A program made the position numbers and the translations under genes. Below are positions 1,971 through 25,385 of a DNA stretch of 64,000 nucleotides, in pieces (the first letter of the stretch is position 1; each line of letters begins with the position of its first letter). The notes beneath the pieces are model-generated. The model saw only the letters and a list, made by a program, of their open reading frames with translations. It did not search any database and had not been told where the DNA came from. Origin of the DNA: Blastocatellia bacterium (GTDB taxonomy: Bacteria > Acidobacteriota > Blastocatellia > RBC074); contig JAYVZE010000200.1 in assembly GCA_043783625.1 (NCBI GenBank), positions 14,097 to 78,096 of the forward strand. Direction: 5' to 3'.

Positions 1971-2753
1971 CTACAAAAATATTCGCCTAAAATTCGCGGT
2001 GGTAATCGCTGCGATTTCTTCAAAACTGACGTTCTGCAAAGCTGCCAATTGCATCGCAGTTTCTTTCACGAACGCAGGTTCATTGCGCTTTCCGCGATAC
2101 GGCACAGGCGCGAGGAACGGGCAATCCGTTTCGATCAATAAACGATCTTTCGGAACCGAAGCCGCTACTGCTCGCAAAGCATCCGCATTTTTGAACGTGA
2201 TAACTCCTGAAAAAGAAATCATAAAACCCATCGCCAACGCCGCATCTGCGAGTGTTTGTGTTCCGGTAAAGCAATGAATAATGCCCCCACGTTTTTTCAA
2301 ATCGTGCTGAAAATAAGCATCGCGCAAAATCTCTATCGTATCTTCTTCGGCGTCGCGGGTATGAATAATGACGGGCAAATCCGCCTGCAACGTCAGTTCT
2401 AATTGACGCCTGAAAACTTGTTGCTGCACTTCGCGCGGGCTGTGATCGTAGTAATAATCCAAGCCGATTTCACCCCAGCCAATCACTTTCGGATGCTGCG
2501 CCAGAGTCACAAATTTTTGTTCGAGAGCTTCATCGTATAAACTGGCTTCGTGCGGATGAAGACCGATGGCGGCATAAATGAAATCGTGTTTTTCAGCCAG
2601 AGCGATGCCAATATCCAATGACCCTTTGGCAACATCGCTCCCGGCAATTTCGAGAAATAATTCAACTCCGGCGGCTTGAGCGCGAGCAATTACGTCGTCA
2701 CGATCTTCATCAAAAGCGGGCGTATCTAAATGAGCGTGTGAATCTATCAACAT
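1971..2753 (-). CDS. tatD: TatD family metal-dependent hydrolase (DNase)
   Basis: MLIDSHAHLD start motif, conserved His/Glu/Asp TIM-barrel metal ligands, about 260 aa. ATG at 2753 preferred over TTG at 2786. Confidence 0.8.
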   Translation of the reverse strand: MLIDSHAHLDTPAFDEDRDDVIARAQAAGVELFLEIAGSDVAKGSLDIGIALAEKHDFIYAAIGLHPHEASLYDEALEQKFVTLAQHPKVIGWGEIGLDYYYDHSPREVQQQVFRRQLELTLQADLPVIIHTRDAEEDTIEILRDAYFQHDLKKRGGIIHCFTGTQTLADAALAMGFMISFSGVITFKNADALRAVAASVPKDRLLIETDCPFLAPVPYRGKRNEPAFVKETAMQLAALQNVSFEEIAAITTANFRRIFL

Positions 2754-2846
2754 ATCTATGACAATTTCCTGAAACTTTGAGAGCAAAATAAATGATGTGA
2801 TGAACTATCAATGTACACGACGCAATGCGAATCAAGAAGATTTTTT

Positions 2847-2960
2847 CCACGAAGGACACGAAGGGACATGAAGAAAAACATTTTTTTAGTGACCAAAAAA
2901 TTACAGAGATTTCTCTTTATTGGTGATGTCTTTCTTCGTGTCCCTTCGTGTCCTTCGTGG
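2847..2960. promoter_or_regulatory. 30 bp near-perfect inverted repeat (CCACGAAGGACACGAAGGGACATGAAGAAA) flanking a 54 bp AT-rich spacer in the divergent tatD/mqnA promoter region
   Basis: Arms 2847..2876 and 2931..2960 are reverse complements with one mismatch. Lies between divergently transcribed genes. Confidence 0.5.
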
Positions 2961-2991
2961 ATGATAAATTCTTTTCCTGCTTGTTAACTAT

Positions 2992-3804
2992 ATGCGAATT
3001 GCCGCTTCAACTTATCTCAATTCTGCGCCGTTGATTTACAGTTTCACTTCCGGCATGCAGCGCAATCGCGCCATTTTTATTGGCGATGCGGCTCCCGCTC
3101 GTTGTGCGCAAATGTTAGCGAACGGGCAATGCGACATCGCGTTAATTCCGGTGATTGAATACCTGCGAATCCCGAACCTCCGCATCATCCCGAACGTGGC
3201 CGTAGCCTCTAAAAACCGGATCGAAAGCGTCATCCTTGCCACCAAATGCGAACCAAATAAAATTTCAAAAATCGCCTTGGACAGCTCTTCGCGCACTTCG
3301 CAAACCTTAGTCAAAATTTTGATGGCAAACCGGTTTCATCACCAGCCAACTTATTGCGAACGACTTCCTGATCCCGGCTGCGCGAATATGTTTGAGGGAA
3401 CCGACGCCGCGCTGGTGATTGGCGATCCCGCTTTTCACGTCAAAGCCAACGCCGAACGGCTTCATTTGAAGATTTACGACTTAGCCGAAGAGTGGAGAGC
3501 CTTAACCGATTTGCCCTTTGTCTTCGCCGTCTGGGTCGTGCGCGAAGATGCTTTGCCGGAATATCATCGCTTCAAATTAGATTTTGAAATGGCGAAACGC
3601 GAAGGATTGGAACGCGCTCACGAAATCGCGGAACAATACGCGACAGTACTGAATAAATCTTCTGCTGAATTATTTTCTTATCTCACGAAAAATGTGAACT
3701 ACGAATTAGACGGCGAAAATTTAGCAGGGCTGCGCGAATATTTCCGAGAAGCGTTTGAATTGCGATTGGTTGAGCAACAGAAAGAATTATTATTTGTCTC
3801 CTAA
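2992..3804 (+). CDS. mqnA: chorismate dehydratase MqnA (futalosine pathway of menaquinone biosynthesis; MqnA/MqnD family)
   Basis: Motifs LNSAPLIYSF, DIALIPV, SRTSQTLVKIL, LVIGDPAF and DLPFVFAVWVVRED match the MqnA periplasmic-binding-like fold family. Confidence 0.65.
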   Translation: MRIAASTYLNSAPLIYSFTSGMQRNRAIFIGDAAPARCAQMLANGQCDIALIPVIEYLRIPNLRIIPNVAVASKNRIESVILATKCEPNKISKIALDSSSRTSQTLVKILMANRFHHQPTYCERLPDPGCANMFEGTDAALVIGDPAFHVKANAERLHLKIYDLAEEWRALTDLPFVFAVWVVREDALPEYHRFKLDFEMAKREGLERAHEIAEQYATVLNKSSAELFSYLTKNVNYELDGENLAGLREYFREAFELRLVEQQKELLFVS

Positions 3805-6368: not shown

Positions 6369-7793
6369 TTATTGCGGAGTAAATTGTTTCAGGCTGATCT
6401 CACTCGCAATCTGCTGACGCGCTTTATTCAGTGAAGAAAATCTTCCCGCCGCGACTGCTTGCACCAACACATTGCCAATCACCGTCGCTTCAATCGGGCC
6501 TGCTAAAACAGGCTTCTTGCAGGCATTTGCGGTCGCTTGATTCAAATAATTATTCAGCGAACCGCCACCCACAATTTGCACGCCGCGAATTAATTTTCCG
6601 GTGAGTTCTTCAATCGTGCGAATGACCGAAGCGTAACGAAGCGCGAGCGAATCAAGAATTATTTTCGCAATAAATGCTGGCTCGTCACTGTTTTTTTGTC
6701 CGCCCTCAATCAGTAATTCTTTGATCGCAGCCAACATACTCGGCGGATTAAAAAGCCGCTCATCATCTGGAAAAATAACAACGGAATCACCTGAAATTTT
6801 TGCGACATCGGCAAGCAATCCATCGTAATCAACGCTCAAGCCTTGTGTCTGCCATTCCTTGCGACAGGATTCCAACAACCACAATCCCATCACATTTTTT
6901 AGAAAACGAATGGTGCCGAATGCGCCACCTTCGTTGGTGAAATTATGTTCGGCAGTTGCGGCATTGATGAGCGGCGCATAAAGCTCTAGGCCGACGAGTG
7001 ACCAAGTGCCCGAAGAAATATATGCCCAGTCGTTTAGCAACGGCGCACCTGCGACTGCGCTGCCCGTGTCGTGCGTAGCGGGTGCAATGACTTTTACATT
7101 GTGCAAATTCAATTCTTCGGCAAGCTCAGGTTTCAAGAATCCAACTTCGTCTCCGGTGGAAATAATCTCAGTGAATAAATGTTGTGGCAGACTGAGCGCA
7201 GCAATAATTTTTTCATCCCACGTGCGGCTTTCCGCATTCACCATTTGCATCGTCGTCGCGTTCGTATATTCCGTGACAGCCTTGCCCGTCAGAAAAAAAT
7301 TTATCAGGTCAGGCATCAGCAAAAGCCTGTCAGCATTGGTCGCAATACCTGCTTTCGCGTGGGCGCAGAGTTGCGAACTGGTGTTGAGCGTCAAAAATTG
7401 AATCCCCGTCCTAGCATAAATTTCTTCACGCGGCAGCTGCTCAAACAGTCGCTCAAAAATATTTGCCGTTCGTTCATCGCGATAACAAATCGGGTCTTCA
7501 ATCAAATTCCCCTGCGCGTCAATTAAGCCATAATCCACTGCCCAACTGTCTACGCCAAGGCTGTGAATAGGGCGTCCGAGCGCATTCGCACGTTTCGCGG
7601 CGGCGGACAATCCAATTTTAATTTCTGAAAATATATGCGTGAAGTCCCAGCGCAAATGTCCATCCAACTGACGCGGCGGATATTGAAAACGATGCGTTTG
7701 CTCCAGTAAAAATTCACCGGATGAAAGTCCAGCCAAAAAGACGCGTCCACTGCCCGCGCCCAGATCAACCGCAATATAAAGAAAGTTATTCAT
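6369..7793 (-). CDS. rhaB: FGGY-family carbohydrate kinase, rhamnulokinase-like
   Basis: N-terminal AVDLGAGSGRV phosphate-1 motif typical of RhaB, FGGY N- and C-domains, 474 aa. Sits in the rhamnose locus. Confidence 0.65.
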   Translation of the reverse strand: MNNFLYIAVDLGAGSGRVFLAGLSSGEFLLEQTHRFQYPPRQLDGHLRWDFTHIFSEIKIGLSAAAKRANALGRPIHSLGVDSWAVDYGLIDAQGNLIEDPICYRDERTANIFERLFEQLPREEIYARTGIQFLTLNTSSQLCAHAKAGIATNADRLLLMPDLINFFLTGKAVTEYTNATTMQMVNAESRTWDEKIIAALSLPQHLFTEIISTGDEVGFLKPELAEELNLHNVKVIAPATHDTGSAVAGAPLLNDWAYISSGTWSLVGLELYAPLINAATAEHNFTNEGGAFGTIRFLKNVMGLWLLESCRKEWQTQGLSVDYDGLLADVAKISGDSVVIFPDDERLFNPPSMLAAIKELLIEGGQKNSDEPAFIAKIILDSLALRYASVIRTIEELTGKLIRGVQIVGGGSLNNYLNQATANACKKPVLAGPIEATVIGNVLVQAVAAGRFSSLNKARQQIASEISLKQFTPQ

Positions 7794-7864
7794 GACAAAA
7801 AATAGAGTGCGGAAAGTAAGAAATTTACTTTCCGCACTCTATTGTATCATCAAGAATCTATCAG

Positions 7865-7938
7865 AGTCAGTACTACCTGCGGTAGCGGGTGGAAGTAGCG
7901 TTGATGCTCACCACCCGCTACCGCAGGTGGTACTGACT
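7865..7938. repeat. REP element family 2 (arms AGTCAGTACCACCTGCGGTAGCGGGTGG), doublet hairpin; same family as the REPs flanking the RAYT gene
   Basis: 28 nt inverted repeat with 18 nt spacer immediately downstream of the receptor stop codon. Confidence 0.75.
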
Positions 7939-7947
7939 TCGCATAAA

Positions 7948-12838: not shown

Positions 12839-12887
12839 AATTTCATTCCATATATCCGCCAACATTAAGTGCAGATGTTGATCTACA

Positions 12888-12963
12888 CCACCCGCTACGA
12901 CAGCGGTTACTGTGGCGTTGCAGTCGTGGCAGTTGAGTCAGTACCACCTGTGGTAGCGGGTGG
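12888..12963. repeat. REP element family 2 (degenerate left arm, intact right arm) flanking the RAYT gene
   Basis: Right arm agtcagtaccacctgtggtagcgggtgg, left arm ccacccgctacgacagcggttactgtgg. Confidence 0.65.
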
Positions 12964-12974
12964 TAGATTTTCCA

Positions 12975-13484
12975 TCAATCAAACTCTGGCAGATCATCAC
13001 CCTGCCCATTAAGAACATAATCAACGGCACGCTCTACACTCCGTTCATTCCATAAATAGCGAGTACTTCCTTTGTCCGCCCAAGGGCTTCGCTTAAGCAA
13101 CCATAGTCCATCTTGTTTCAGTTGTCTTGTAGCATTTGCTTTCAGCGCATTGAGCGCAAGCTCAACAGATTTTTCTCCGATACAAACAACAACATGAACA
13201 TGATTGGTACGGATGTTAAGTGCATAAATGTCCCATTTTCGGAAACCACACGTTTCGCGGACAGCAGTCTCAACTGAAGAACGATGAGTCGCCTCTAGTT
13301 TTACAGGTTCACAAACGAGCTTGCCTTCATTGTATTCGCGCCACTTCTCATTAGTCGGAATATATGGCGAACGATATTTATTATTAAATCGATTTATTGA
13401 GCCGCGTTCGTCACCATGTAGCCACGTTCCGTAACAACGAAACGTGATTAAGTAGGCAAGTGGGATTTCCGTGTTATTCCACAT
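12975..13484 (-). CDS. REP-associated tyrosine transposase (RAYT), IS200/IS605-like HUH Y1 transposase
   Basis: 169 aa, HUH motif TNHVHVVV, catalytic Tyr context RAVDYVLNGQ, flanked on both sides by family-2 REP palindromes. Confidence 0.75.
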   Translation of the reverse strand: MWNNTEIPLAYLITFRCYGTWLHGDERGSINRFNNKYRSPYIPTNEKWREYNEGKLVCEPVKLEATHRSSVETAVRETCGFRKWDIYALNIRTNHVHVVVCIGEKSVELALNALKANATRQLKQDGLWLLKRSPWADKGSTRYLWNERSVERAVDYVLNGQGDDLPEFD

Positions 13485-13543
13485 GATTTGTTTATGTCAG
13501 TGTTGTCGCTACCGATGATACCGACTCTAACTATGCTGCAACG

Positions 13544-13628
13544 ATTGAGTCAGTACCCGCTGCGGTAGCGGCGGGTTTTCTTTAGACAAGAGCTGCCACC
13601 CGCTACCGCAGGTGGTACTGACTCAATC
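13544..13628. repeat. REP element family 2 doublet flanking the RAYT gene
   Basis: Arms gagtcagtacccgctgcggtagcggcggg and ccacccgctaccgcaggtggtactgactc with extended outer pairing gattgagtcagtac / gtactgactcaatc. Confidence 0.7.
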
Positions 13629-13629
13629 G

Positions 13630-15819
13630 CTATCGCAAAAACCCGTCCTGCAATCCACCATCTACCGGAATCACATGCCCGGTAGTCTTACCCAAACGCT
13701 TCGTCACCAGCAAAAATATTGCTTCGGCTTGATCGTCGGGTTCAATGGCAACTTGCGTGAGCGTACGCTTGGCGTAAAAATTCGCCAGTTTATCGCGCAA
13801 CGTTTCCGTATCTTCGTCTTCGCTGAATTTAATTTCATATTTCGCCAGCGAAGCGATCACGCGATCACGCGGGAACATCGTGCTTCCCTTCACTACCGTA
13901 GCAGGCGCAACCGCATTCACGCGCACGAGCGGCGACATTTCAATCGCCAGTTCACGCACTAAATGATTCGCGGCGGCTTTGCTGGTGTCGTACGCTAGGC
14001 TTCCCTTTTTCGCTACGACGGCGTTTGCACTGGTGGTCAGCACAATGTTGGAAGGCAAGCCTTGCCGCTTGAAAACTTTGTTCGCTTCGTCAGCAACGAT
14101 GTACGCGCCCGTCACGTTAATGGCGAAAGTTTTATCCCATAAATTATCGGGGATATATCCAGCTTTATCAGGCGGAACAAAAATTCCGGCAGTTACGACT
14201 ACGGCATCAATTCCGCCGTAAGCGAGCATCACATCCGCGAACATTTTCTGCACGCTTTCACGATTTGTGATGTTGCAGGCAAGGCCAATCGCAGGGCCGC
14301 AATTGCTGATGCCTGTGCCAGCCACGCCAATGCCTTCGCCGTATTGCTTGATAATTTCCTGCGCAGTTTCTTTGGCGGAAGTTTCATCAAGGTCTACGCA
14401 AACGATGTGTGCACCTTCTTTGACCAAACGATGCGCAGTAGCTTTGCCGATGCCCGCGCCTGCGCCGATGACGACGTGGATTTGACGATCCAATTCTTTT
14501 TCGGCGGGCATTCGTCGCAGCTTGGCTTCTTCGAGCAACCAATATTCGATGTCGAAAGCTTCCTGCTGATCCATCGCTTCGTATTGGTCAATGGCCTCTG
14601 CGCCGCGCATCACTTCAATCGCGCAGTTATAAAATTCGGCAGCCACGCGAGATTCACTTTTGTTTTTTCCAAATGCGATCATGCCGATGCCAGGGATTAA
14701 AACTACGGTTGGATTAGCGTCGCGCATCGCGGGCGAATCGGGATGTTTGCAGCGGTCATAATACGCCGCGTAATCTTTGCGATATTGCACGATGCCCGTT
14801 TCGATCAATGTTTTCAAAGCTCCGATGTCACCGCTGACAGGATTCCAGTCAATAAATAACGGCTTGATCTTGGTACGCAAAAAATGATCGGGACACGACG
14901 TGCCGAGTTCAGCAAGGCGCGGCGCGTCTACGCTATTCACAAAACGCAACATTTTCGGATCGTCCTGCACAGTGCCAATCATGCGTTTATTTGACGAAAC
15001 CTTTCCGCGCAGCCAGGGCAACAAATCAACTAATAATTTTTGACGTTCGGCTTCGGGTAACGCCTGATGTTTTTGTCCGCCAAAAGTTTTTTCGCCTTTA
15101 TCTTTTGATTCGATATAACGCGCCGCCGTGTCAATAATTTCCAGCGCAGTTTCATAACAAGTCTTGTCGTTATTCGCCCACGAAGACATGCCGTGATGAC
15201 CAAGCACAATGCCTTTGGCTTTTGGGTTGTCGGCGATCATTGATTCAATAATTAAGCCAATATCAAAGCCCGGACGTTGCCACGGAATATATAAAACTTC
15301 GTCGCCAAAAATTTCTTTCGTCAAACGTTCCTGATTGACAGAAGCAGCGATGGCGATGACGGCGTTCGGATGCAAATGGTCTACGTGCTTGAATGGCACG
15401 AACGTATGGAGCGGCGTATCAATCGAACAAGCGCGTGGATTCAGGTTATATACACAATGATTGTAAAGCGGAACCATCGCGTCTTCGATTTCCGTCTTCG
15501 CGCCTTTGTTCGGATGATTCGTGTACAGCGGTTTCATCGCGCGAACTTTGTCGAGATAGAGCGAAGCAAAGCCGTCGCACTTCGCCGTGCGCAAATCACC
15601 GCCGGAGCCTTTGATCCATAAGACTTCAACGTCTGCGCCGGTGAGCGGGTCTTTTTCCATCAGCTTTGACGAAGTGTTGCCGCCGCCCGTATTCGTCAGC
15701 GTCAAATCATCGCCGAGCCGATTGGAGCGATAGACGAGACGATCTGCGCCGGATAATTTGTCGGCTTCTTCGTCTTTCCAAAGATATTGTACGTGTTGAT
15801 AAGAATCTTTTTTACTCAT
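13630..15819 (-). CDS. bifunctional rhamnulose-1-phosphate aldolase / short-chain alcohol dehydrogenase (class II aldolase-adducin domain fused to SDR)
   Basis: N-terminal aldolase domain starting MSKKDSYQHVQYLWKD with GGGNTS motif. C-terminal SDR with Rossmann GxGxxG and YxxxK-type active site. ATG at 15819 has GGAGGC 13 nt upstream. Confidence 0.7.
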   Translation of the reverse strand: MSKKDSYQHVQYLWKDEEADKLSGADRLVYRSNRLGDDLTLTNTGGGNTSSKLMEKDPLTGADVEVLWIKGSGGDLRTAKCDGFASLYLDKVRAMKPLYTNHPNKGAKTEIEDAMVPLYNHCVYNLNPRACSIDTPLHTFVPFKHVDHLHPNAVIAIAASVNQERLTKEIFGDEVLYIPWQRPGFDIGLIIESMIADNPKAKGIVLGHHGMSSWANNDKTCYETALEIIDTAARYIESKDKGEKTFGGQKHQALPEAERQKLLVDLLPWLRGKVSSNKRMIGTVQDDPKMLRFVNSVDAPRLAELGTSCPDHFLRTKIKPLFIDWNPVSGDIGALKTLIETGIVQYRKDYAAYYDRCKHPDSPAMRDANPTVVLIPGIGMIAFGKNKSESRVAAEFYNCAIEVMRGAEAIDQYEAMDQQEAFDIEYWLLEEAKLRRMPAEKELDRQIHVVIGAGAGIGKATAHRLVKEGAHIVCVDLDETSAKETAQEIIKQYGEGIGVAGTGISNCGPAIGLACNITNRESVQKMFADVMLAYGGIDAVVVTAGIFVPPDKAGYIPDNLWDKTFAINVTGAYIVADEANKVFKRQGLPSNIVLTTSANAVVAKKGSLAYDTSKAAANHLVRELAIEMSPLVRVNAVAPATVVKGSTMFPRDRVIASLAKYEIKFSEDEDTETLRDKLANFYAKRTLTQVAIEPDDQAEAIFLLVTKRLGKTTGHVIPVDGGLQDGFLR

Positions 15820-19247: not shown

Positions 19248-19814
19248 TTATTTGGTTTTCCAAACGCTCGCGTATTTTTTTCGGTATTTAGGATCAGTTT
19301 CGGTTTCGATGAATGCCAGTGCGGTTTCCTGAATTTTTTTGTCCGGCACTGCGTCAAAAAGTTTTTTCAGCGCAACGCAAATATCGTAGCGAAACAGTGT
19401 GCCATTTTTTTCAGTAGCGCATTCCTTAAACCGCAGCGTGTAACCACCCAGCACCAGTTGTAAGTATTTTTTGTTCACACGCCCGATTTTCCAAAGTGCT
19501 TGCAATGAATGACGCGCGGTCACGGTTCGTTCATCTCTGGTCACCGCCAACAATACGTCAAAATCTTTCAGCATTTTATTTTTCGGATCGCTTTGCGCGA
19601 GTTCACTTAAAAATTGCACAGCAATCGTACGCTGATGATTATCGCCGTTGCGCGTCATTTCTTTCAGCTCATCCCACACGTCATACGCCCAATCCACGGG
19701 GCTTTTGGCGAGCGTGAGTAATTCTTGAAATGCCGCGTAACGAACGTTCGCATCTTTTGAATGTAGCAAATCAGCTTTTGTGCGTAAGTCGGCATTCATA
19801 ATTTTTATCTTCAC
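19248..19814 (-). CDS. hypothetical alpha-helical (HEAT/AlkD-like repeat) protein
   Basis: 188 aa all-helical repeat pattern, 4 nt overlap with the upstream SGNH gene. No confident family call. Confidence 0.35.
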   Translation of the reverse strand: MKIKIMNADLRTKADLLHSKDANVRYAAFQELLTLAKSPVDWAYDVWDELKEMTRNGDNHQRTIAVQFLSELAQSDPKNKMLKDFDVLLAVTRDERTVTARHSLQALWKIGRVNKKYLQLVLGGYTLRFKECATEKNGTLFRYDICVALKKLFDAVPDKKIQETALAFIETETDPKYRKKYASVWKTK

Positions 19815-21127
19815 CGTTTCTTCGCAGCAGCAGCTTTAGGAGCAAAGATCGTCAAATCAATCGCATTCGCCATCGCTTCATATCCCGCATCGCCCGGATG
19901 CAACCAATCTCCTGCGTGAAAGGCTTCCATAAATTTTTTAGGATTTTTCGGATCACGTGTCGCCGCATCGAAATCAACTACGCCGTCGAACGCGCCACTG
20001 GTGCGAATCCATTGATTGACAGCGGTGCGCGCGGCTTCGCCTTTTTCAGTGAATGCACGCGAACCATCAAACGGAGTCAGCGTGCAACCGATAATTTTCA
20101 AGCCGCGTGCGTGTGCGTGTTCGATGATTTGTTTGTATCCCGTGAGCAAATCTTCAGCAACGGCTTTCGCGTCTGCTTCCGGCTGACGGGTGCGCCCACT
20201 AATGTCATTAATGCCTTCCATTAACAGCACAAATTTTACGCCGGGCTGCGTCAGGACATCACGTTCCAGTCGCGCCAGCGCGCTCATTCCACCCAGCACG
20301 CCGCCTCCATCACGCAACACCTGATTGCCGGAAATGCCTACATTCACGACGCCAAAATTCACAGTGCGTTTGTCAGCCTGTAAGCGTTTAGTGAAATAAG
20401 CAGGCCACGTATGATCTGTGTTCGGCATTGAGCCGTGTCCGTCGGTAATTGAATCGCCAAACGCCACGATTGTCGCAGCGTTGGCGGGAGCGAGAACATC
20501 AATGCCCGCGAGCCAGTAATACGCCAGCGAAGTCGTCGCCGCAGCAATTTCTGCGCTGCCGGAAAAATCGCCTTCCTTCGATAAATAAGCAGTATGTTCG
20601 CCAAACAAATGCGTACTCGTCGTGCTTTCTTTTGGCACAAACATACTCACAGCAATTTCGGCTAACGGAGCAACCGTTAAATCTACTGGATCGCTCAACA
20701 TCACCGCTCCCGGCGGAATTAAGCACGAAGAACGACCACTAAATTTCAGTACGCGATCTGAAGCGGGAATAATAGCGGAATCATTTTTGCGTAGCGCAAT
20801 ATGTGCGGCTCCAATTTCCAACGGCTTGCTGCCGAAAGCATTCACCAATCGAATTCGTACGCTACGCCCGCCAACACTGCCCCTGACGATCATTCGTACC
20901 GTTTGATTATTGACGCTTGACCACATTGATGGAATTGCCAGATTGACGGGCGGCGGCGGATTTTGCGGCGGACGCGGTGCGGTCGGGCCGTTGTAAATTA
21001 TTTGCTGCGCAGTTCCCCACGTAGCAACCCAATGTTCACCGTTTGATTGCGCCACAATCGCAAAATTCAAGCCAACCAATAGCAAAACCAGCAAGAATAT
21101 TTTTTGTTGAGTTTTCATGTTTTTCAT
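19811..21127 (-). CDS. secreted SGNH/GDSL hydrolase (carbohydrate acetylesterase-like) with N-terminal beta-sandwich domain
   Basis: Signal peptide. Block I FGDSITDG with catalytic Ser. C-terminal DWLHP block with Asp/His. Confidence 0.7.
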   Translation of the reverse strand: MKNMKTQQKIFLLVLLLVGLNFAIVAQSNGEHWVATWGTAQQIIYNGPTAPRPPQNPPPPVNLAIPSMWSSVNNQTVRMIVRGSVGGRSVRIRLVNAFGSKPLEIGAAHIALRKNDSAIIPASDRVLKFSGRSSCLIPPGAVMLSDPVDLTVAPLAEIAVSMFVPKESTTSTHLFGEHTAYLSKEGDFSGSAEIAAATTSLAYYWLAGIDVLAPANAATIVAFGDSITDGHGSMPNTDHTWPAYFTKRLQADKRTVNFGVVNVGISGNQVLRDGGGVLGGMSALARLERDVLTQPGVKFVLLMEGINDISGRTRQPEADAKAVAEDLLTGYKQIIEHAHARGLKIIGCTLTPFDGSRAFTEKGEAARTAVNQWIRTSGAFDGVVDFDAATRDPKNPKKFMEAFHAGDWLHPGDAGYEAMANAIDLTIFAPKAAAAKKR

Positions 21128-21210
21128 AAGTTGCGTAAGAACTTTACGAAGAGGCGTAGCTCAATTCCCAAAATCGTTATAGCTTTCAGAAAATGAACTT
21201 TCAATCAAAG

Positions 21211-21392
21211 CTCCAACGGAGCGAAATACAATAGCCCAGGGTGCAACCCTGGGTAGGATCAGAAATAGAATCCAAGCCCTGAAGGGGCGAAATAAATTAT
21301 TGCGCCCTTTCAGGGCTTGATTTTTTCCGTGCAATCAACCCAGGGTTGCACCCTGGGCTATTGTATTGCCACCCCTTCGGGGTTCTGTTCGG
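21211..21392. repeat. about 180 bp nested-palindrome element (family 3), copy 1
   Basis: Outer IR atagcccagggtgcaaccctggg / cccagggttgcaccctgggctat, inner IR gccctgaaggggcg / cgccctttcagggc, terminal ccaacggagcg. Second copy at 24091..24286. Confidence 0.7.
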
Positions 21393-21450
21393 AAAAACAT
21401 TTTCTTAATTTTTATAACCAAACAAACTACCCATTGAACTTTCGGAATTC

Positions 21451-22695
21451 TCACCACGGCATCAATCCCATTTGTTTTTTACCAAGCTCCGATAAATCTT
21501 CAAGCGTAGCGCGATTTTTAAAATTTACCTCGTAATCTTCCGCCGCAAAATCCGGCGAACTTTTTCCCGCTAAAAAGCTCTCAGCCTGACGCGTCAAAAA
21601 TCGCGCATTCTTCTCGCACCACGGCGCAGCACCGATGTAAATCACGTTGCTGTAATTGATGCCGCGATGTTCATTTTCGACGGCGTGGATCACGTCGGGA
21701 TGCCACCAAACGGTGTCGCCGGGTTCGACAGTTGGGATGCTGATTTCGGCTTGTAATAAAAGTTGATGCCATTGCGGATACGCCGCCAACGCACGTCCTG
21801 CCGCCGCTCCGCACAAATCATCCGGCGCGACATCGGGTTGCAACGCACGTAATAACAACCACGCCATGCTTCGCGCAATCGGAATAATTTTCAACGTACC
21901 ATCGCCCGGCCCTTGCTTCGTCAAAGCCGTCCAGCCTTGAAACGTACGAAACATGCTGCACACCGCAGGCGAAGGAATTTCTTTCGTGTTGGTGCGTCCT
22001 TCCGCACGAAACGGGTCGTACTTATTTACGTCGCCGAAAAAAACTTCGTGAAAGACGCGATGAAAACTGGGGTCGCACCAACGCTCTATCGAACCGCCAT
22101 CACAATGCGCCGACAGTCCTAACGATTTGTCGCCCGGTTCGCGGCGACGTATGCGGTCGGCGTAATTGCATTGCCGATCAGGATCAAATTCCATCGTTCC
22201 ATCGGCATGACTGAAATCCCACAAACGATTGAGCCAGCTTCGCGTCGCTGCTAAATTTTCATGTTGCCGCGCCTGCATCTGCGGACATGACCAATACAAA
22301 CCAAAAATCTGCGGTCGCCCTGATGCCAGCGCACTGAAATATTTATCCAGTCCAACTTTGTCTTTTGCTTTTTCGTAATAATTATTTTCGTCAATGTAAC
22401 GACCGATTTCTTCACTCCAAGCCGTTGCTTGTTGAGGAGCAAAGACTCCGCGAATGACTACACAGCCGCGCCGTCTGATGCGATTTTTTTGTGCTTCGCT
22501 AATCGTGCCTGACGACAAATCATGATAGGAAATGTTTGGTACCGCATCTGCGCCTTCGGCTTTGACCGCCGCTACTTCATCAGTCAGCCATTCATCCATC
22601 TGCGCCATTCGAGCAGCGCAATCCGGCATCTGCGCGAGCAGCGCAGCCTTCGCGTCAATTACAGCTTGCTTGGGGTTATTCATCCAGTTTTGCAT
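21451..22695 (-). CDS. hypothetical protein, possibly DUF1479/YbiU-like (double-stranded beta-helix oxygenase-like fold)
   Basis: 414 aa cytoplasmic protein. WHPDVIHAVE-type His motif. Family assignment from memory only. Confidence 0.35.
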   Translation of the reverse strand: MQNWMNNPKQAVIDAKAALLAQMPDCAARMAQMDEWLTDEVAAVKAEGADAVPNISYHDLSSGTISEAQKNRIRRRGCVVIRGVFAPQQATAWSEEIGRYIDENNYYEKAKDKVGLDKYFSALASGRPQIFGLYWSCPQMQARQHENLAATRSWLNRLWDFSHADGTMEFDPDRQCNYADRIRRREPGDKSLGLSAHCDGGSIERWCDPSFHRVFHEVFFGDVNKYDPFRAEGRTNTKEIPSPAVCSMFRTFQGWTALTKQGPGDGTLKIIPIARSMAWLLLRALQPDVAPDDLCGAAAGRALAAYPQWHQLLLQAEISIPTVEPGDTVWWHPDVIHAVENEHRGINYSNVIYIGAAPWCEKNARFLTRQAESFLAGKSSPDFAAEDYEVNFKNRATLEDLSELGKKQMGLMPW

Positions 22696-22701
22696 AAAAT
22701 T

Positions 22702-24039
22702 TTATATACCAAAAATATTCCGGTCTAAAAATTCATTGCGGAATTTTCCTTGTGGGTCGTATTGCTTCAGCAAATTTTGAAAATCAGCAAAGCGTTCATA
22801 ACGCGATTTTAATTGCGCGGGCGTGACTGTGAACAATTTGCCCCAATGCGGACGTATGCCAAACGGAGCCAGTTCTTTTTCAATCACAGGAATCAATTTC
22901 ATCACCGCAGCCGTGTTTTGTTTCCACGTAAAATGAATCGCGACGCTGGTTTGGTTGTAAGCAGTACTCATCCAAAGATTATCCGCAGCAATCGTACGAA
23001 TTTCTGAAATCATAATATCTTTCGACCATTTGTTGCCCAGGCGATTGATCGCGCTCAAAGCCGCATAAGCATTGCGGAGCGGAACAAAAAATTCTGACTG
23101 TAATTCTTTGCCGCTGCTGGGTGTAAAATTCATGCGGAAGTGCGGCAACCGTTCATGCCACGGGCCAGGCACGCCCATTTGCTCTGTGCAATTAATGGCG
23201 TCGAGTTCGGCAATCGGATGCAGATTTTTCTTCGCTAATTTTGCGCCAAAAAACTCCGGCTTCGGATTGATTGCACCACCGTCAATTCGGCTTTTGACCC
23301 AGACTTCGCTGACATTATTTTTCAGCCAATTTGTGAATAAACTGACGCTGTAGCTGCTCGACATAATCGCTTCAAAATTGCGCTCTAATTCACCGAACGG
23401 CAAATTTTCATAAACGTCTTGCCGCACCTGAAACGTTGGTTGGATGTCGAGCGTGACTTTTGTGACGACACCAATGCCGCCGAGGTTCACGACTGCGCCG
23501 TTGAATTGCTCGCTGTCTTTTCCGCGCGTTAAATTAACGACTTCGCCAGAGTCCGTGACAAACTCAATGCCCGCGACTGCCGAAGCCAAATTGCCATTTT
23601 TAATTCCTGATCCGTGCGTTGCTGTCGCGCAGGCTCCGGCGACAGAAATGTGCGGTAACGAGGCCAGGTTATGCAGCGCGTAGCCTTTGTTTACGAGGTA
23701 TTCCGCCAAAGTACCATAACGAATACCTGCTTCGACAGTGACGGTATTCGCTTGCGTATCAAGTGAAACAACCTTCGCCATTTTTTTCGTGGAAACAAGA
23801 TTATGCGGAGAATCAGCAATACGATTGAAGCAATGCTGTGTGCCTAACACGCGGAGCTTTGGTGTTTTCTTCACCAGTTCCTGCACCTGTTCGAGCGATT
23901 CAGGATAAAAAACATTTTCTGTGCTGTAGGTTAAATTCCCTGCCCAGTTTTTCAGTTTCTCACCTTTGGCCCAGGCACGGGAAAAAACCGCGTCTGCGAT
24001 AGAAGCGGATGACATTTTTAGAAACGTTCGTTTTCTCAT
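22702..24039 (-). CDS. FAD-linked aldonolactone/alditol oxidoreductase (FAD_binding_4 plus ALO C-terminal domain), Tat-type signal
   Basis: MRKRTFLKMSSASIA twin-arginine-like N-terminus followed by NWAGN motif typical of gulono/arabinono-1,4-lactone oxidases. ATG at 24039. Confidence 0.65.
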   Translation of the reverse strand: MRKRTFLKMSSASIADAVFSRAWAKGEKLKNWAGNLTYSTENVFYPESLEQVQELVKKTPKLRVLGTQHCFNRIADSPHNLVSTKKMAKVVSLDTQANTVTVEAGIRYGTLAEYLVNKGYALHNLASLPHISVAGACATATHGSGIKNGNLASAVAGIEFVTDSGEVVNLTRGKDSEQFNGAVVNLGGIGVVTKVTLDIQPTFQVRQDVYENLPFGELERNFEAIMSSSYSVSLFTNWLKNNVSEVWVKSRIDGGAINPKPEFFGAKLAKKNLHPIAELDAINCTEQMGVPGPWHERLPHFRMNFTPSSGKELQSEFFVPLRNAYAALSAINRLGNKWSKDIMISEIRTIAADNLWMSTAYNQTSVAIHFTWKQNTAAVMKLIPVIEKELAPFGIRPHWGKLFTVTPAQLKSRYERFADFQNLLKQYDPQGKFRNEFLDRNIFGI

Positions 24040-24090
24040 AGCTGACCTGTTGATTTGCGATAGCATTTCAAAAAATGCTCTTCCGAATAG

Positions 24091-24286
24091 AGTCCCAACG
24101 GGACGCCGATAACATAGCTCAGGGTGCAACCCCGGGTAAGATCGGAACATATAAAGTAGCCCTGAAGGGGCGACATAAAAAATCTGTGAATATCTCGCCC
24201 TTTCAGGGCTTGCGCAAAAATCTCAACGCTTCCCGGGGTTGCACCCCGGGCTATTACATTCCGCTCCGTTGGAGCTTTGTTCGGAG
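24091..24286. repeat. about 190 bp nested-palindrome element (family 3), copy 2, same orientation as copy 1
   Basis: Outer IR atagctcagggtgcaaccccggg / cccggggttgcaccccgggctat with compensatory A:T to G:C change relative to copy 1. Inner IR gccctgaaggggcg / cgccctttcagggc. Terminal cccaacggg / ccgttggag. Confidence 0.7.
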
Positions 24287-24310
24287 TTTATAATTAAACA
24301 AATTCTTGCG

Positions 24311-25321
24311 TTAGCGGCGGCTCGCCCAAGCCATTCCATCCGGCTGTTTGCCGACATCAATGCGACCGATGATTTCCAGCGATTTCAAATCAATGATGGC
24401 GACATAATCATCCGGCGTACAGGCAATGTAGGCTCGTGTGCCGTCCGGTTGCATCTGAATGCCTGCGGCTCCGCGTCCAAGCTTGATTCGTTTCACTTCA
24501 GTGCGCTTAGCGACATCAATAATCGTCGCATCCGAACCGCTGAGGGTTGAGATAAAAACGCGTTTTCCATCAGGCGTGAATTTCAGCCGATTGGCTCCTT
24601 TGACGTTAGCATCAAGTGTGTTTGTAACTTTTTTGCTGGCGACATCAATGATCGAAACCGTGCCATCCTGAGAATTCGACACCCAGACTTCTTTTCCATC
24701 AGGAGCAACATCGAATCCTTCCGGGCCTTTGCCGACAGGGATCAGCGTTTGATCCCAATCTTCACGACCTGGACGCAGCGCAGCTTTCTCAATCATACTC
24801 ACCGTACCCGAACCCATATTCGTAGTAAAAATCGGCGCAGTGGCTTCCGTCACAAAAAGCATGTGCGTTCTGCGCTGCCCCGTCCCGAAGACAAAATCTA
24901 CTTTCTTGGTGTTCGGATCATAGCTGCCAACGACGTTCGCCGCTTCCGCTGTGAACCAGACTTTTCCGCCTGCGAACACAATGCCGTGCGGCCCCTTCAA
25001 TGCTCCCAAATCAATTGACGGCAAAGCCTTCTGCTCGACCAAATCAAGCACCGCAATCGTGTTATAAGCACCGCCGCCATAATTGGTCACGTAAGCGAAT
25101 TTCCCATCAGCAGAAGCGATGACTTCATGCGGGTCTGGCCCGACGGGCATGCGGGCAATCACCTTCAGGCTGACAGGATCAACGATTGCTAAGGTGCGTT
25201 CTGTTTTGGAGAGAATCAGCAAAGATTGTGACGGCGTACTTTCTATCGGCAGATTGCCCATCGAAAAAAGACTGCTGAGTAAAAGTGCTGAAATTATTTT
25301 GATGTGTAGTAATGCAGCCAT
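24311..25321 (-). CDS. secreted YVTN-family beta-propeller repeat protein
   Basis: Signal peptide. Repeated YVTN / DG..V.V motifs every 40-45 residues. Confidence 0.7.
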   Translation of the reverse strand: MAALLHIKIISALLLSSLFSMGNLPIESTPSQSLLILSKTERTLAIVDPVSLKVIARMPVGPDPHEVIASADGKFAYVTNYGGGAYNTIAVLDLVEQKALPSIDLGALKGPHGIVFAGGKVWFTAEAANVVGSYDPNTKKVDFVFGTGQRRTHMLFVTEATAPIFTTNMGSGTVSMIEKAALRPGREDWDQTLIPVGKGPEGFDVAPDGKEVWVSNSQDGTVSIIDVASKKVTNTLDANVKGANRLKFTPDGKRVFISTLSGSDATIIDVAKRTEVKRIKLGRGAAGIQMQPDGTRAYIACTPDDYVAIIDLKSLEIIGRIDVGKQPDGMAWASRR

Positions 25322-25385
25322 AAATTCTTCCTCCAAAACTGTAAAAAACATTACGCAAGGAATCGCTTTCTTGTTACGATCTCCT

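Follow-up and report, generated by a model that had tools for sequence, protein, structure and literature searches.

Two nested palindromes of about 185 nt, each in an intergenic gap, were found in a stretch of 64,000 nt from a Blastocatellia bacterium (the window, which here means this whole stretch). We consider it very probable that each of them joins both ends of a Y1 (HUH tyrosine) transposase unit of TnpA_Y1 subclass 1.2 in a gene-less doublet, like the REPINs that are built from repetitive extragenic palindromic (REP) sequences, and that they are propagated in trans, via hairpins extruded in single-stranded DNA (ssDNA), by an enzyme encoded elsewhere. In each element two Acido-Lenti-1 units (Rfam family RF01687) form an inverted doublet around a central hairpin. 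Acido-Lenti-1 was proposed as a probable small RNA (sRNA) of Acidobacteria and Lentisphaerae and was graded "probably RNA" from its covariation; the sole remark of the original authors on its genomic context was that it is sometimes near group II introns (Weinberg et al. 2010, PMC2864571). Our results suggest that this "small RNA" is a DNA repeat comparable to the REP/REPIN elements.

Two copies of a triple-nested palindrome had been noticed here in an earlier reading of the letters alone (the sequence-only reading), and they are present where it placed them, with cores at 21206-21390 (copy 1) and 24089-24280 (copy 2). Their homology is wider than these cores (~21165-21428 and ~24050-24303), and the nested arms were recovered by a repeat search of the window. 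In both copies the outer arms consist of two hairpins, hp2 and hp1, the latter with the inner stems CCCRGGG-TGCAA/TTGCA-CCCYGGG, and the central stem is GCCCTGAAGGGGCG / CGCCCTTTCAGGGC. One end reads hp3, ~22 nt, hp1, CTA(T/C), ~8 nt, hp2, and the other end is its inverted copy; the opposite strand of each hp1 reads (G/A)TAG and then the hairpin, as in the layout of REP sequences. The hp3 arms of copy 1 are themselves partial Acido-Lenti-1 3' halves (model positions 22-45). The signal is strong: the hp1 19-mer occurs 7 times in the window (0.01 expected) and the 14-mer of the central arm 4 times (0.34 expected), while folding as ssDNA gave -70.2 kcal/mol for copy 1 (z = -13.9 against shuffles) and -50.9 kcal/mol for copy 2 (z = -6.4). 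Some details of the first description need correction. The compensatory changes (A to G, T to C) attributed to copy 2 are clean in its right arm only, as there is an A·C mismatch in its left arm. Each of the terminal ccaacgg arms forms a local 5-bp hairpin by itself; in copy 1 they are not long-range partners, the left and right terminal hairpins having no mutual complementarity. And the two copies can hardly be said to share one orientation, as each is near-palindromic and global alignment gave 69.8% identity inverted versus 64.0% direct.

An Rfam scan of the whole window returned exactly three matches above the gathering score (37 bits for RF01687), all of them Acido-Lenti-1, and these are three of the four outer arms. 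The units were also scored with a covariance model rebuilt from the published Acido-Lenti-1 seed (R1). The coordinates, with those of the surrounding genes and the gene orders of related loci, are given in table 1.

Table 1. Features of the two elements, neighboring genes in the window, and syntenic loci of relatives (percentages are identities of the Gig2-like protein)
Feature	Position	Strand	Description
Whole intergenic segment with copy 1	21129..21450	.	insertion of 322 nt when compared with close relatives; junctions from blastn against L213/L214, L212, L216, L217
Copy 1, left Acido-Lenti-1 unit	21209..21253	-	hp2 GCTCC-AAC-GGAGC, linker, ATAG head, hp1 CCCAGGG-TGCAA-CCCTGGG; RF01687 43.4 bits, R1 43.5 bits
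Copy 1, central hairpin hp3/hp3'	21273..21319	.	inverted repeat of 23 nt, 91% complementary; partial model matches 21276-21299(-), 21293-21316(+)
Copy 1, right Acido-Lenti-1 unit	21339..21384	+	hp1, CTAT, linker, hp2 ACCCC-TTC-GGGGT; RF01687 38.8 bits, R1 38.5 bits
Copy 1, outer extension (CTGTTCGGAAAAACATTTTCTT...)	21385..21428	.	common to copy 2, L107 and L064; degenerate mirror at ~21165-21205
Intergenic segment with copy 2	24040..24310	.	between beta-propeller stop and oxidase start; orthologous doublet at L217 974-1158; segment absent in L213/L214
Copy 2, left Acido-Lenti-1 unit, decayed	24091..24136	-	hp1 CTCAGGG...CCCCGGG with A·C mismatch; RF01687 20.8 bits (below gathering score), R1 22.3 bits
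Copy 2, central hairpin hp3/hp3', 13-nt loop	24158..24210	.	inverted repeat of 20 nt, 90% complementary; partial model matches
Copy 2, right Acido-Lenti-1 unit	24232..24276	+	hp1 CCCGGGG-TTGCA-CCCCGGG (compensatory change), CTAT, hp2 GCTCC-GTT-GGAGC; RF01687 40.3 bits, R1 40.8 bits
Beta-propeller gene	24311-25351	-
FAD/ALO oxidase gene	22702-24039	-
Gig2-like/DUF1479 gene	21451-22695	-
GDSL esterase gene	19811-21127	-
Relatives L213 / L214 (90%)			beta-propeller, 25 nt, Gig2, 1 nt, GDSL; no oxidase; no Acido-Lenti-1 units
Relative L212 (85%)			Gig2 adjoins GDSL; no oxidase; no Acido-Lenti-1 units
Relative L215 (82%)			Gig2 adjoins GH106; no GDSL gene, no oxidase; no Acido-Lenti-1 units
Relative L216 (89%)			oxidase, Gig2, 3 nt, GDSL; no units, including the 93 nt upstream of the oxidase
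Relative L217 (87%)	974-1158 (doublet, in L217)		upstream gene, doublet, oxidase, Gig2, 26 nt, GDSL; one doublet

The repeat is present in many genomes and is not confined to this one. A scan for the hp1 18-mer, in one genome per species, found at least 119 loci. Because the scan pattern has 17 specified bases and ~70 chance matches were estimated in the 596 Gb searched, we relied on the covariance model and counted isolated single matches only if it confirmed them; on the loci listed from the scan it found at least 163 units in at least 82 sources. Model-confirmed carriers were Blastocatellia, Pyrinomonadaceae, Thermoanaerobaculaceae, Terracidiphilus, Gemmataceae/Urbifossiella, Pirellulales, Opitutaceae, Roseibacillus, Lentisphaerae/Victivallaceae, several Bacteroidota, and Desulfovibrionaceae. 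Among the matches listed, two metagenome-assembled genomes (MAGs) had at least 12 loci each, neighboring units were arranged minus-then-plus in 46 of 68 pairs, and the gaps within doublets clustered at 52-54, 61-75, and 85-112 nt. The published seed coordinates already contain tandem arrays with periods of 69-74, 110-115, and ~200 nt, together with some inverted pairs, and Lentisphaera araneosa alone has dozens of seed units. Thus the suggestion of the sequence-only reading that the element resembles a miniature inverted-repeat transposable element (MITE) or a structured noncoding RNA was apt in that a multicopy, MITE-like repeat with arms in a catalogued family is found in many genomes; its RNA half is disfavored, as argued below.

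The five-hairpin plan with AGCCCTGAAGGGGCG-type central arms was the same across Acidobacteriota, Planctomycetota, Verrucomicrobiota, Lentisphaerota, Bacteroidota, and Desulfovibrionaceae. In doublets with gaps of 85-112 nt the order across phyla was hp2, linker, (G/A)TAG-hp1, spacer, central hairpin, spacer, hp1-CTA(T/C), linker, hp2. G-C-T after hp1 was invariant (GGCTA/GGCTG), so that the other strand reads (G/A/T/C)(T/C)AGCC plus the hairpin; the head is ATAG in the window and GTAG in Urbifossiella, Thermoanaerobaculaceae, and two further loci (L010 and L027), among others. The left and right hp2, or the left and right hp1, of one element are often unlike in sequence and yet each keeps its own stem, which argues for selection on local hairpins and not on long-range pairing.

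The units are also found in arrays. Six minus-strand units with a period of ~72 nt lie upstream of a Y1 gene (L203 1028-1450), six plus-strand units with a period of ~69 nt lie downstream of another (L208 1999-2416), and in a Desulfovibrionaceae MAG entire doublets are repeated six times over at a period of ~352 nt (L110 3497-5453). These arrays resemble clusters of bacterial interspersed mosaic elements (BIMEs) and match the 69-74-nt arrays in the Lentisphaera seed of Weinberg. In short-read (Logan) contigs of the same organism as the window, the assembly breaks inside the elements (L001 at its position 1, ~24220; L002 at its end, ~21339); the repeats therefore hinder assembly, which implies that further copies of this kind exist elsewhere in the genome or community.

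These units are in tight physical association with a Y1 transposase gene. A screen of open reading frames (ORFs) near units for HUH motifs left 11 candidates, of which Pfam identified four as Y1_Tnp. In a Terracidiphilus locus (L095, Pfam 85 bits) and a Bacteroidetes locus (L104, 81 bits) the Y1_Tnp gene lies exactly between two hp3 arms, and the layout in L095 is [hp2-linker-ATAG-hp1-spacer-hp3], ORF, [hp3'-spacer-hp1-CTAT-linker-hp2]. The left and right ends of such a unit are inverted copies of one three-hairpin module. An alignment of 12 sequences, 32 columns of which are invariant, places the half-elements of the window colinearly on the two ends, left and right, of L095 and L133, and in it the central hairpin of copy 1 is the counterpart of the hairpins that immediately precede the start codon and follow the stop codon of the Y1 gene. 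Three further homologs in independent contexts have the same flanks, and an isolate, Persicobacter sp. JZB09, has a Y1 gene with the same arrangement of units; the loci with such flanks include L122-L131 and L223. A metagenome scan with the protein alignment then gave 80 loci with proteins 47-83% identical to that of L095. Among them, 54 of 71 had a minus-strand Acido-Lenti-1 unit no more than 200 nt upstream of the Y1 gene (median distance ~55 nt), 62 of 78 had a plus-strand unit no more than 200 nt downstream of it (median ~52 nt), and 45 of 69 had units on both sides; these median distances leave just room enough for hp3. As a control, Y1 genes of other classes (L021, L023, and window 12975-13484) were flanked by other repeats and not by Acido-Lenti-1 units.

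Two observations concern the gene-bearing units themselves. In L095 a second copy of the right end, carrying the last ~45 nt of the Y1 gene (gggattgaatatgatccgcgatatgtttggggatga), occurs ~700 nt downstream of the intact gene (7395-7550) and is what is left of a gene-bearing unit that was duplicated or deleted. In L122/L123 an IS110-family gene (2166-3137; DEDD_Tnp_IS110 + Transposase_20) is located just downstream of the Y1 gene, and the right Acido-Lenti-1 unit is displaced to ~3422. Some IS110/IS1111 elements target REP-like hairpins, and this arrangement fits.

The partner proteins are 149 aa long (gene ~450 bp). They pass the NCBIfam profile transpos_IS200 (cutoff 55 bits) with scores of 62.4 and 63.4 and fail REP_Tyr_transpos (NF047646; cutoff 80 bits) with 17.9 and 19.5. 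A profile search of PDB with the partner protein returned only transposases of the IS200/IS605 type, with IS608 TnpA nearest (E = 2e-13), two further transposase groups (2xm3/2xma/2xo6 and 2fyx), and 2f4f and 2ec2; it returned no TnpA_REP. Invariant positions in the protein alignment are H55/H57, W94-Q95, Y114, Q118, and E120-H121-H122, and the C-terminal tail is conserved, so that the signature reads DH[AVI]H, WQ, Y...Q.EHH. Subclass 1.2 of TnpA_Y1 was described as ~148 aa long, with DH[IV]H, WQ, Y---Q--HH (YIKNQKEHH), and a conserved short C-terminal domain, occurring in a mean of 1.7 copies, and without associated REPs or end structures (Quentin et al. 2018, PMC6006769). Judged by motifs and length, that is, at the level of signatures, our partner enzyme matches this subclass, and by its profile scores it is IS200-like rather than a classical REP-associated tyrosine transposase (RAYT).

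Other Y1 genes were considered as partners and rejected. Those in L021 and L023 are true RAYTs (REP_Tyr_transpos 99 and 181 bits), have unrelated REPs of their own, and are near Acido-Lenti-1 units by coincidence. The window has a Y1_Tnp-like gene of its own on the minus strand (12975-13484; 169 aa, Pfam 27.9 bits; motifs NHVH, W-A, YVLNGQ), which resembles the "class 3" of Quentin et al. (2018); tblastn against all the repeat-bearing loci gave no match, and its flanking repeat is a different one. This second palindromic repeat (GAGTCAGTACCACCTGCGGTAGCGGGTGG and its inverse) occurs on both sides of the gene (12880-12960 and 13540-13630) and as a separate inverted doublet at 7864-7939 (region 7855-7940), with 5 matches in the window against 0.11 expected. 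The repeat and the gene look like a second, independent pair of repeat and Y1 transposase in the same 64 kb.

Considering that Rfam files these units as structured sRNA genes, the doublets might instead encode sRNAs, in convergent or divergent pairs, or else one long hairpin RNA, acting in trans. The arms do pass the Rfam gathering score, and the elements lie within a co-oriented operon and so are probably transcribed. Besides the grading by Weinberg et al. (2010), there is strong and real covariation in the two hairpins: in 122 Y1-flanking units, which are related to each other, 98% of cells were paired, 11 of 13 pairs had changed on both sides, and 0 of 500 shuffles scored as high, while slid controls paired at 37-48%; the alignment, being fitted to the model, leans toward the modeled structure. 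The kind of mismatch points the other way. Among 1470 pair cells there were 7 G·T and 21 A·C, so that G·U wobble was not enriched, whereas an RNA in the Rfam orientation should give the reverse of these counts; near absence of G·U, rarer even than A·C, is the pattern expected of a DNA palindrome. Because an A·C excess is G·T on the strand that carries the (G/A)TAG-hairpin, that strand may be the folding one, which the counts weakly suggest, as a hint rather than a test, the units being related to each other. Furthermore, the units are found on both strands, mostly as inverted pairs; they flank the transposase gene on opposite strands at fixed distances; a promoter scan found no sigma-70-like site within the elements; and the tandem arrays adjoining Y1 genes (L203 and L208) have the look of BIME clusters. 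The role of a hairpin in ssDNA is the better reading, from the wobble counts and from the inverted, both-strand arrangement around a transposase gene, and we regard sRNA genes as quite improbable.

The history of the locus bears on how the elements came to be there. The genes here form a run on the minus strand, in the order beta-propeller, copy 2, oxidase, Gig2-like, copy 1, GDSL esterase. Syntenic loci of relatives were found via homologs of the Gig2-like protein (79-90% identical), and the covariance model found no Acido-Lenti-1 unit in L212-L215. From the stop of the Gig2-like gene to the start of the GDSL gene there are only 1-26 nt in close relatives, with no repeat between. The segment with copy 1 is missing from five syntenic loci (L212-L214, L216, and L217), and copy 1 is therefore a lineage-specific insertion of 322 nt. 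Its junctions read TGA|GAATTCC... and ...GCAACTT|ATGAAAAAC, compared with TGA-CT-ATAAAAAAC in L213; a target duplication was sought at the copy 1 junction and none was evident, the termini being uncertain. Copy 2 is present in the window and in L217, which lacks copy 1, and copy 2 is on this comparison the older of the two. This polymorphism of presence and absence supports, at the sequence level, insertional mobility of the element itself.

The sequence-only reading had mobility of another kind in mind, with the two copies as flanking repeats of a mobile or recombination-prone cassette of the oxidase and Gig2-like genes. Two similar repeats do stand 2.7 kb apart around two genes, and the oxidase gene is variably present, occurring in the window, L216, and L217 and being absent in L213/L214, L212, and L215. 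The comparison of loci contradicts the model, however, and does so by the condition that the sequence-only reading had itself set for refuting mobility of the cassette. As far as these relatives show, the Gig2-like gene is ancestral to the locus, abutting GDSL without a repeat in L212, L213, L214, L216, and L217, and the oxidase gene alone varies, independently of the repeats. Both L216 and L217 carry oxidase and Gig2-like genes without copy 1, and L216 has no unit in the 93 nt upstream of its oxidase. In addition, copy 2 predates copy 1, the copies match better inverted than direct, and their shared arms are just ~45 nt long. The cassette model is thus scarcely credible. Nor do the elements form an integron attC/cassette array: no integrase was present in the neighborhood examined, the genes belong to a conserved syntenic catabolic locus, and the unit arrays with periods of 69-74 nt are too short for cassettes.

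The products of the two enclosed genes had been called functionally unexplained. Their neighbors include GH106 rhamnosidases, a GDSL esterase, a fusion of aldolase_II and short-chain dehydrogenase, and an outer-membrane barrel protein. The neighborhood is a locus of the rhamnoside-utilization type, and this gives the two genes a plausible setting.

Further observations were made at these loci. Copy 2 (24091-24276) is the ortholog of the doublet of L217 (974-1158), and the outer flanks of the two are identical. Of the two arms in the window, the one toward the beta-propeller gene is intact and the one toward the oxidase has decayed; in L217, whose two arms are nearly identical, the reverse holds. 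This pattern points to gene conversion, either between arms or between copies, or to a replacement at this site. Among the public contigs, L216 begins with a remnant of an Illumina adapter (1-12, CTCTTCCGATCT), an assembly artefact, and in L213 (900-4700 and 8600-12000) the outer-membrane barrel, TPR, and GH106 genes are fragmented, which looks like frameshift errors of a long-read assembly.

We propose the following mechanism. The left and right ends of the Y1 transposase unit would have been joined head to head, with the ~450-bp gene missing, so that the two hp3 arms pair as the central stem. The hairpins would extrude in ssDNA, for example at the replication fork, where the cognate 149-aa IS200-like Y1 enzyme, presumably encoded elsewhere in the genome, would bind and cut them, excise or copy the doublet, and insert it without target duplication. 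In this way doublets would have landed in two intergenic gaps of a minus-strand operon for sugar (rhamnoside) utilization. As a side effect, they may serve as transcript-end hairpins or attenuators. The anatomy of the repeats, the covariation of their hairpins, the association with the Y1 gene, and the polymorphism of presence and absence are direct observations, whereas catalysis, the route via ssDNA, action in trans, and the presence of the enzyme in this genome are inferred.

Such a regulatory role could also be the main one, if the elements are hairpins selected by the host (terminators, attenuators, or stabilizers of mRNA, as proposed for REPs of E. coli) whose link to the transposase is historical only. 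Both copies lie between co-oriented genes, copy 2 has been kept in two lineages, and there are T-tailed terminator-like hairpins at 21253-21235 and 21222-21210 on the transcribed minus strand and at 21304-21316 on the plus strand. Against this, the weak T-tracts are conserved neither between the copies nor among taxa, relatives function with genes directly abutting, and the features that are conserved (hp1 with its CTA head, hp2, and hp3) are those of the ends of the Y1 gene and not of terminators. We therefore hold host-selected regulation to be unlikely as the principal explanation.

Several facts weigh against the transposase-end reading itself. Besides the lean of the model-fitted alignment mentioned above, the exact element termini, the target site, and the lack of a target duplication are not fixed, and copy 2 has nothing that corresponds to ~60 nt of the copy 1 insertion. 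Neither the window nor ~8 kb of added flank (Logan contigs L219-L221) contained a Y1 gene of subclass 1.2, and a partner acting in trans in this genome is therefore assumed; these contigs contained no further Acido-Lenti-1 units, and there are only two doublets in ~72 kb. About 20-25% of the metagenome homologs have no detectable unit on a given side, and a plasmid-borne homolog of Bernardetia has no full units but only small hp2-like hairpins upstream. Finally, we know of no enzymology for subclass 1.2.

The elements can be compared with several known systems. They share with RF01687 the two-hairpin unit with the conserved GGCUA and overlapping phyla (Acidobacteria, Lentisphaerae). The Rfam entry, however, is a single unit of 46 nt typed "Gene; sRNA", whereas here the unit makes up one half of an inverted doublet that has a third hairpin, forms the end structure of a Y1 transposase unit, occurs in at least six phyla, and lacks the wobble-pair signature of RNA. 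With the REP/REPIN-RAYT systems and BIMEs (Nunvar 2010; Bertels and Rainey 2011; Ton-Hoang 2012) they have in common that the palindromes are extragenic and carry a (G/A)TAG head on the 5' side of their hairpin, that inverted doublets fold into one long hairpin and occur in clusters and arrays, and that the cognate HUH/Y1 gene is flanked by inverted repeats while gene-less copies are dispersed. They differ in their partner, which is IS200-like with Y...Q..HH instead of the Y..NP of class 2 RAYTs (TnpA_REP), in having three hairpins per arm instead of one, and in an hp1 that is nearly identical across phyla, REP families being usually lineage-specific. IS200/IS605 elements and their gene-less PATE derivatives likewise involve an HUH/Y1 TnpA, in the autonomous relatives, and ends with subterminal hairpins, and the copies in the window are gene-less too; yet those ends are not inverted repeats and have both hairpins on one strand, in contrast to the inverted multi-hairpin ends found here. 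Unlike subclass 1.2 as described (Quentin et al. 2018, PMC6006769), the clade sampled here is flanked by conserved inverted multi-hairpin ends. TIRYTs and TIRtrons (Di Nocera et al. 2013, PMC3733652) are Y1 genes flanked by long, partly self-complementary inverted repeats that form families, also in Acidobacteria, but their repeats have a GGGGWSAS motif or are unrelated. The acidobacterial TIRYTs (aba 1552, tsa 392, and others; PMC3733652) were rejected as a prior description, since they are of class 2 (Y..NP), longer, and of a different protein family. A classical MITE with terminal inverted repeats and a DDE-type transposase was likewise rejected: no duplication was seen at the copy 1 junction, whose termini are uncertain, and the gene between the ends is Y1, not DDE.

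That the repeat is a catalogued motif is already known, as is the concept of REPINs and RAYTs. What appears to be new is the link between RF01687 and a Y1 transposase, its extension to a class 1 (IS200-like) subclass thought to have no cognate repeats, and nearly the same hairpins across phyla; in the literature searched we found no publication linking Acido-Lenti-1 to a transposase. Going beyond the window, we think it reasonably likely that Acido-Lenti-1 is not an sRNA but the DNA recognition end of the "orphan" subclass 1.2, and that a class 1 Y1 enzyme, not a class 2 RAYT, maintains REPIN-like doublets and BIME-like arrays in at least six phyla. This would give a concrete identity to an Rfam family that has been uncharacterized as "sRNA" since 2010, and pipelines that call RF01687 matches RNA genes may be mislabeling DNA repeats. 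It would also supply the missing cognate repeats of a Y1 subclass described in 2018 as having neither REPs nor end structures, and offer a simple in vitro system of a 149-aa enzyme and a ~95-nt end. In the window, the repeats would be ordinary selfish or semi-domesticated insertions in a rhamnoside-utilization operon and not markers of a mobile cassette. The type of relationship known from REP/REPIN and RAYT would reach beyond class 2 enzymes and Proteobacteria, to Acidobacteriota, Planctomycetota, Verrucomicrobiota, Lentisphaerota, Bacteroidota, and Desulfovibrionaceae. If RF01687 is indeed the recognition end of subclass 1.2, its near-identical hairpins imply either horizontal spread of the enzyme together with its ends or a very strong co-constraint of enzyme and DNA.

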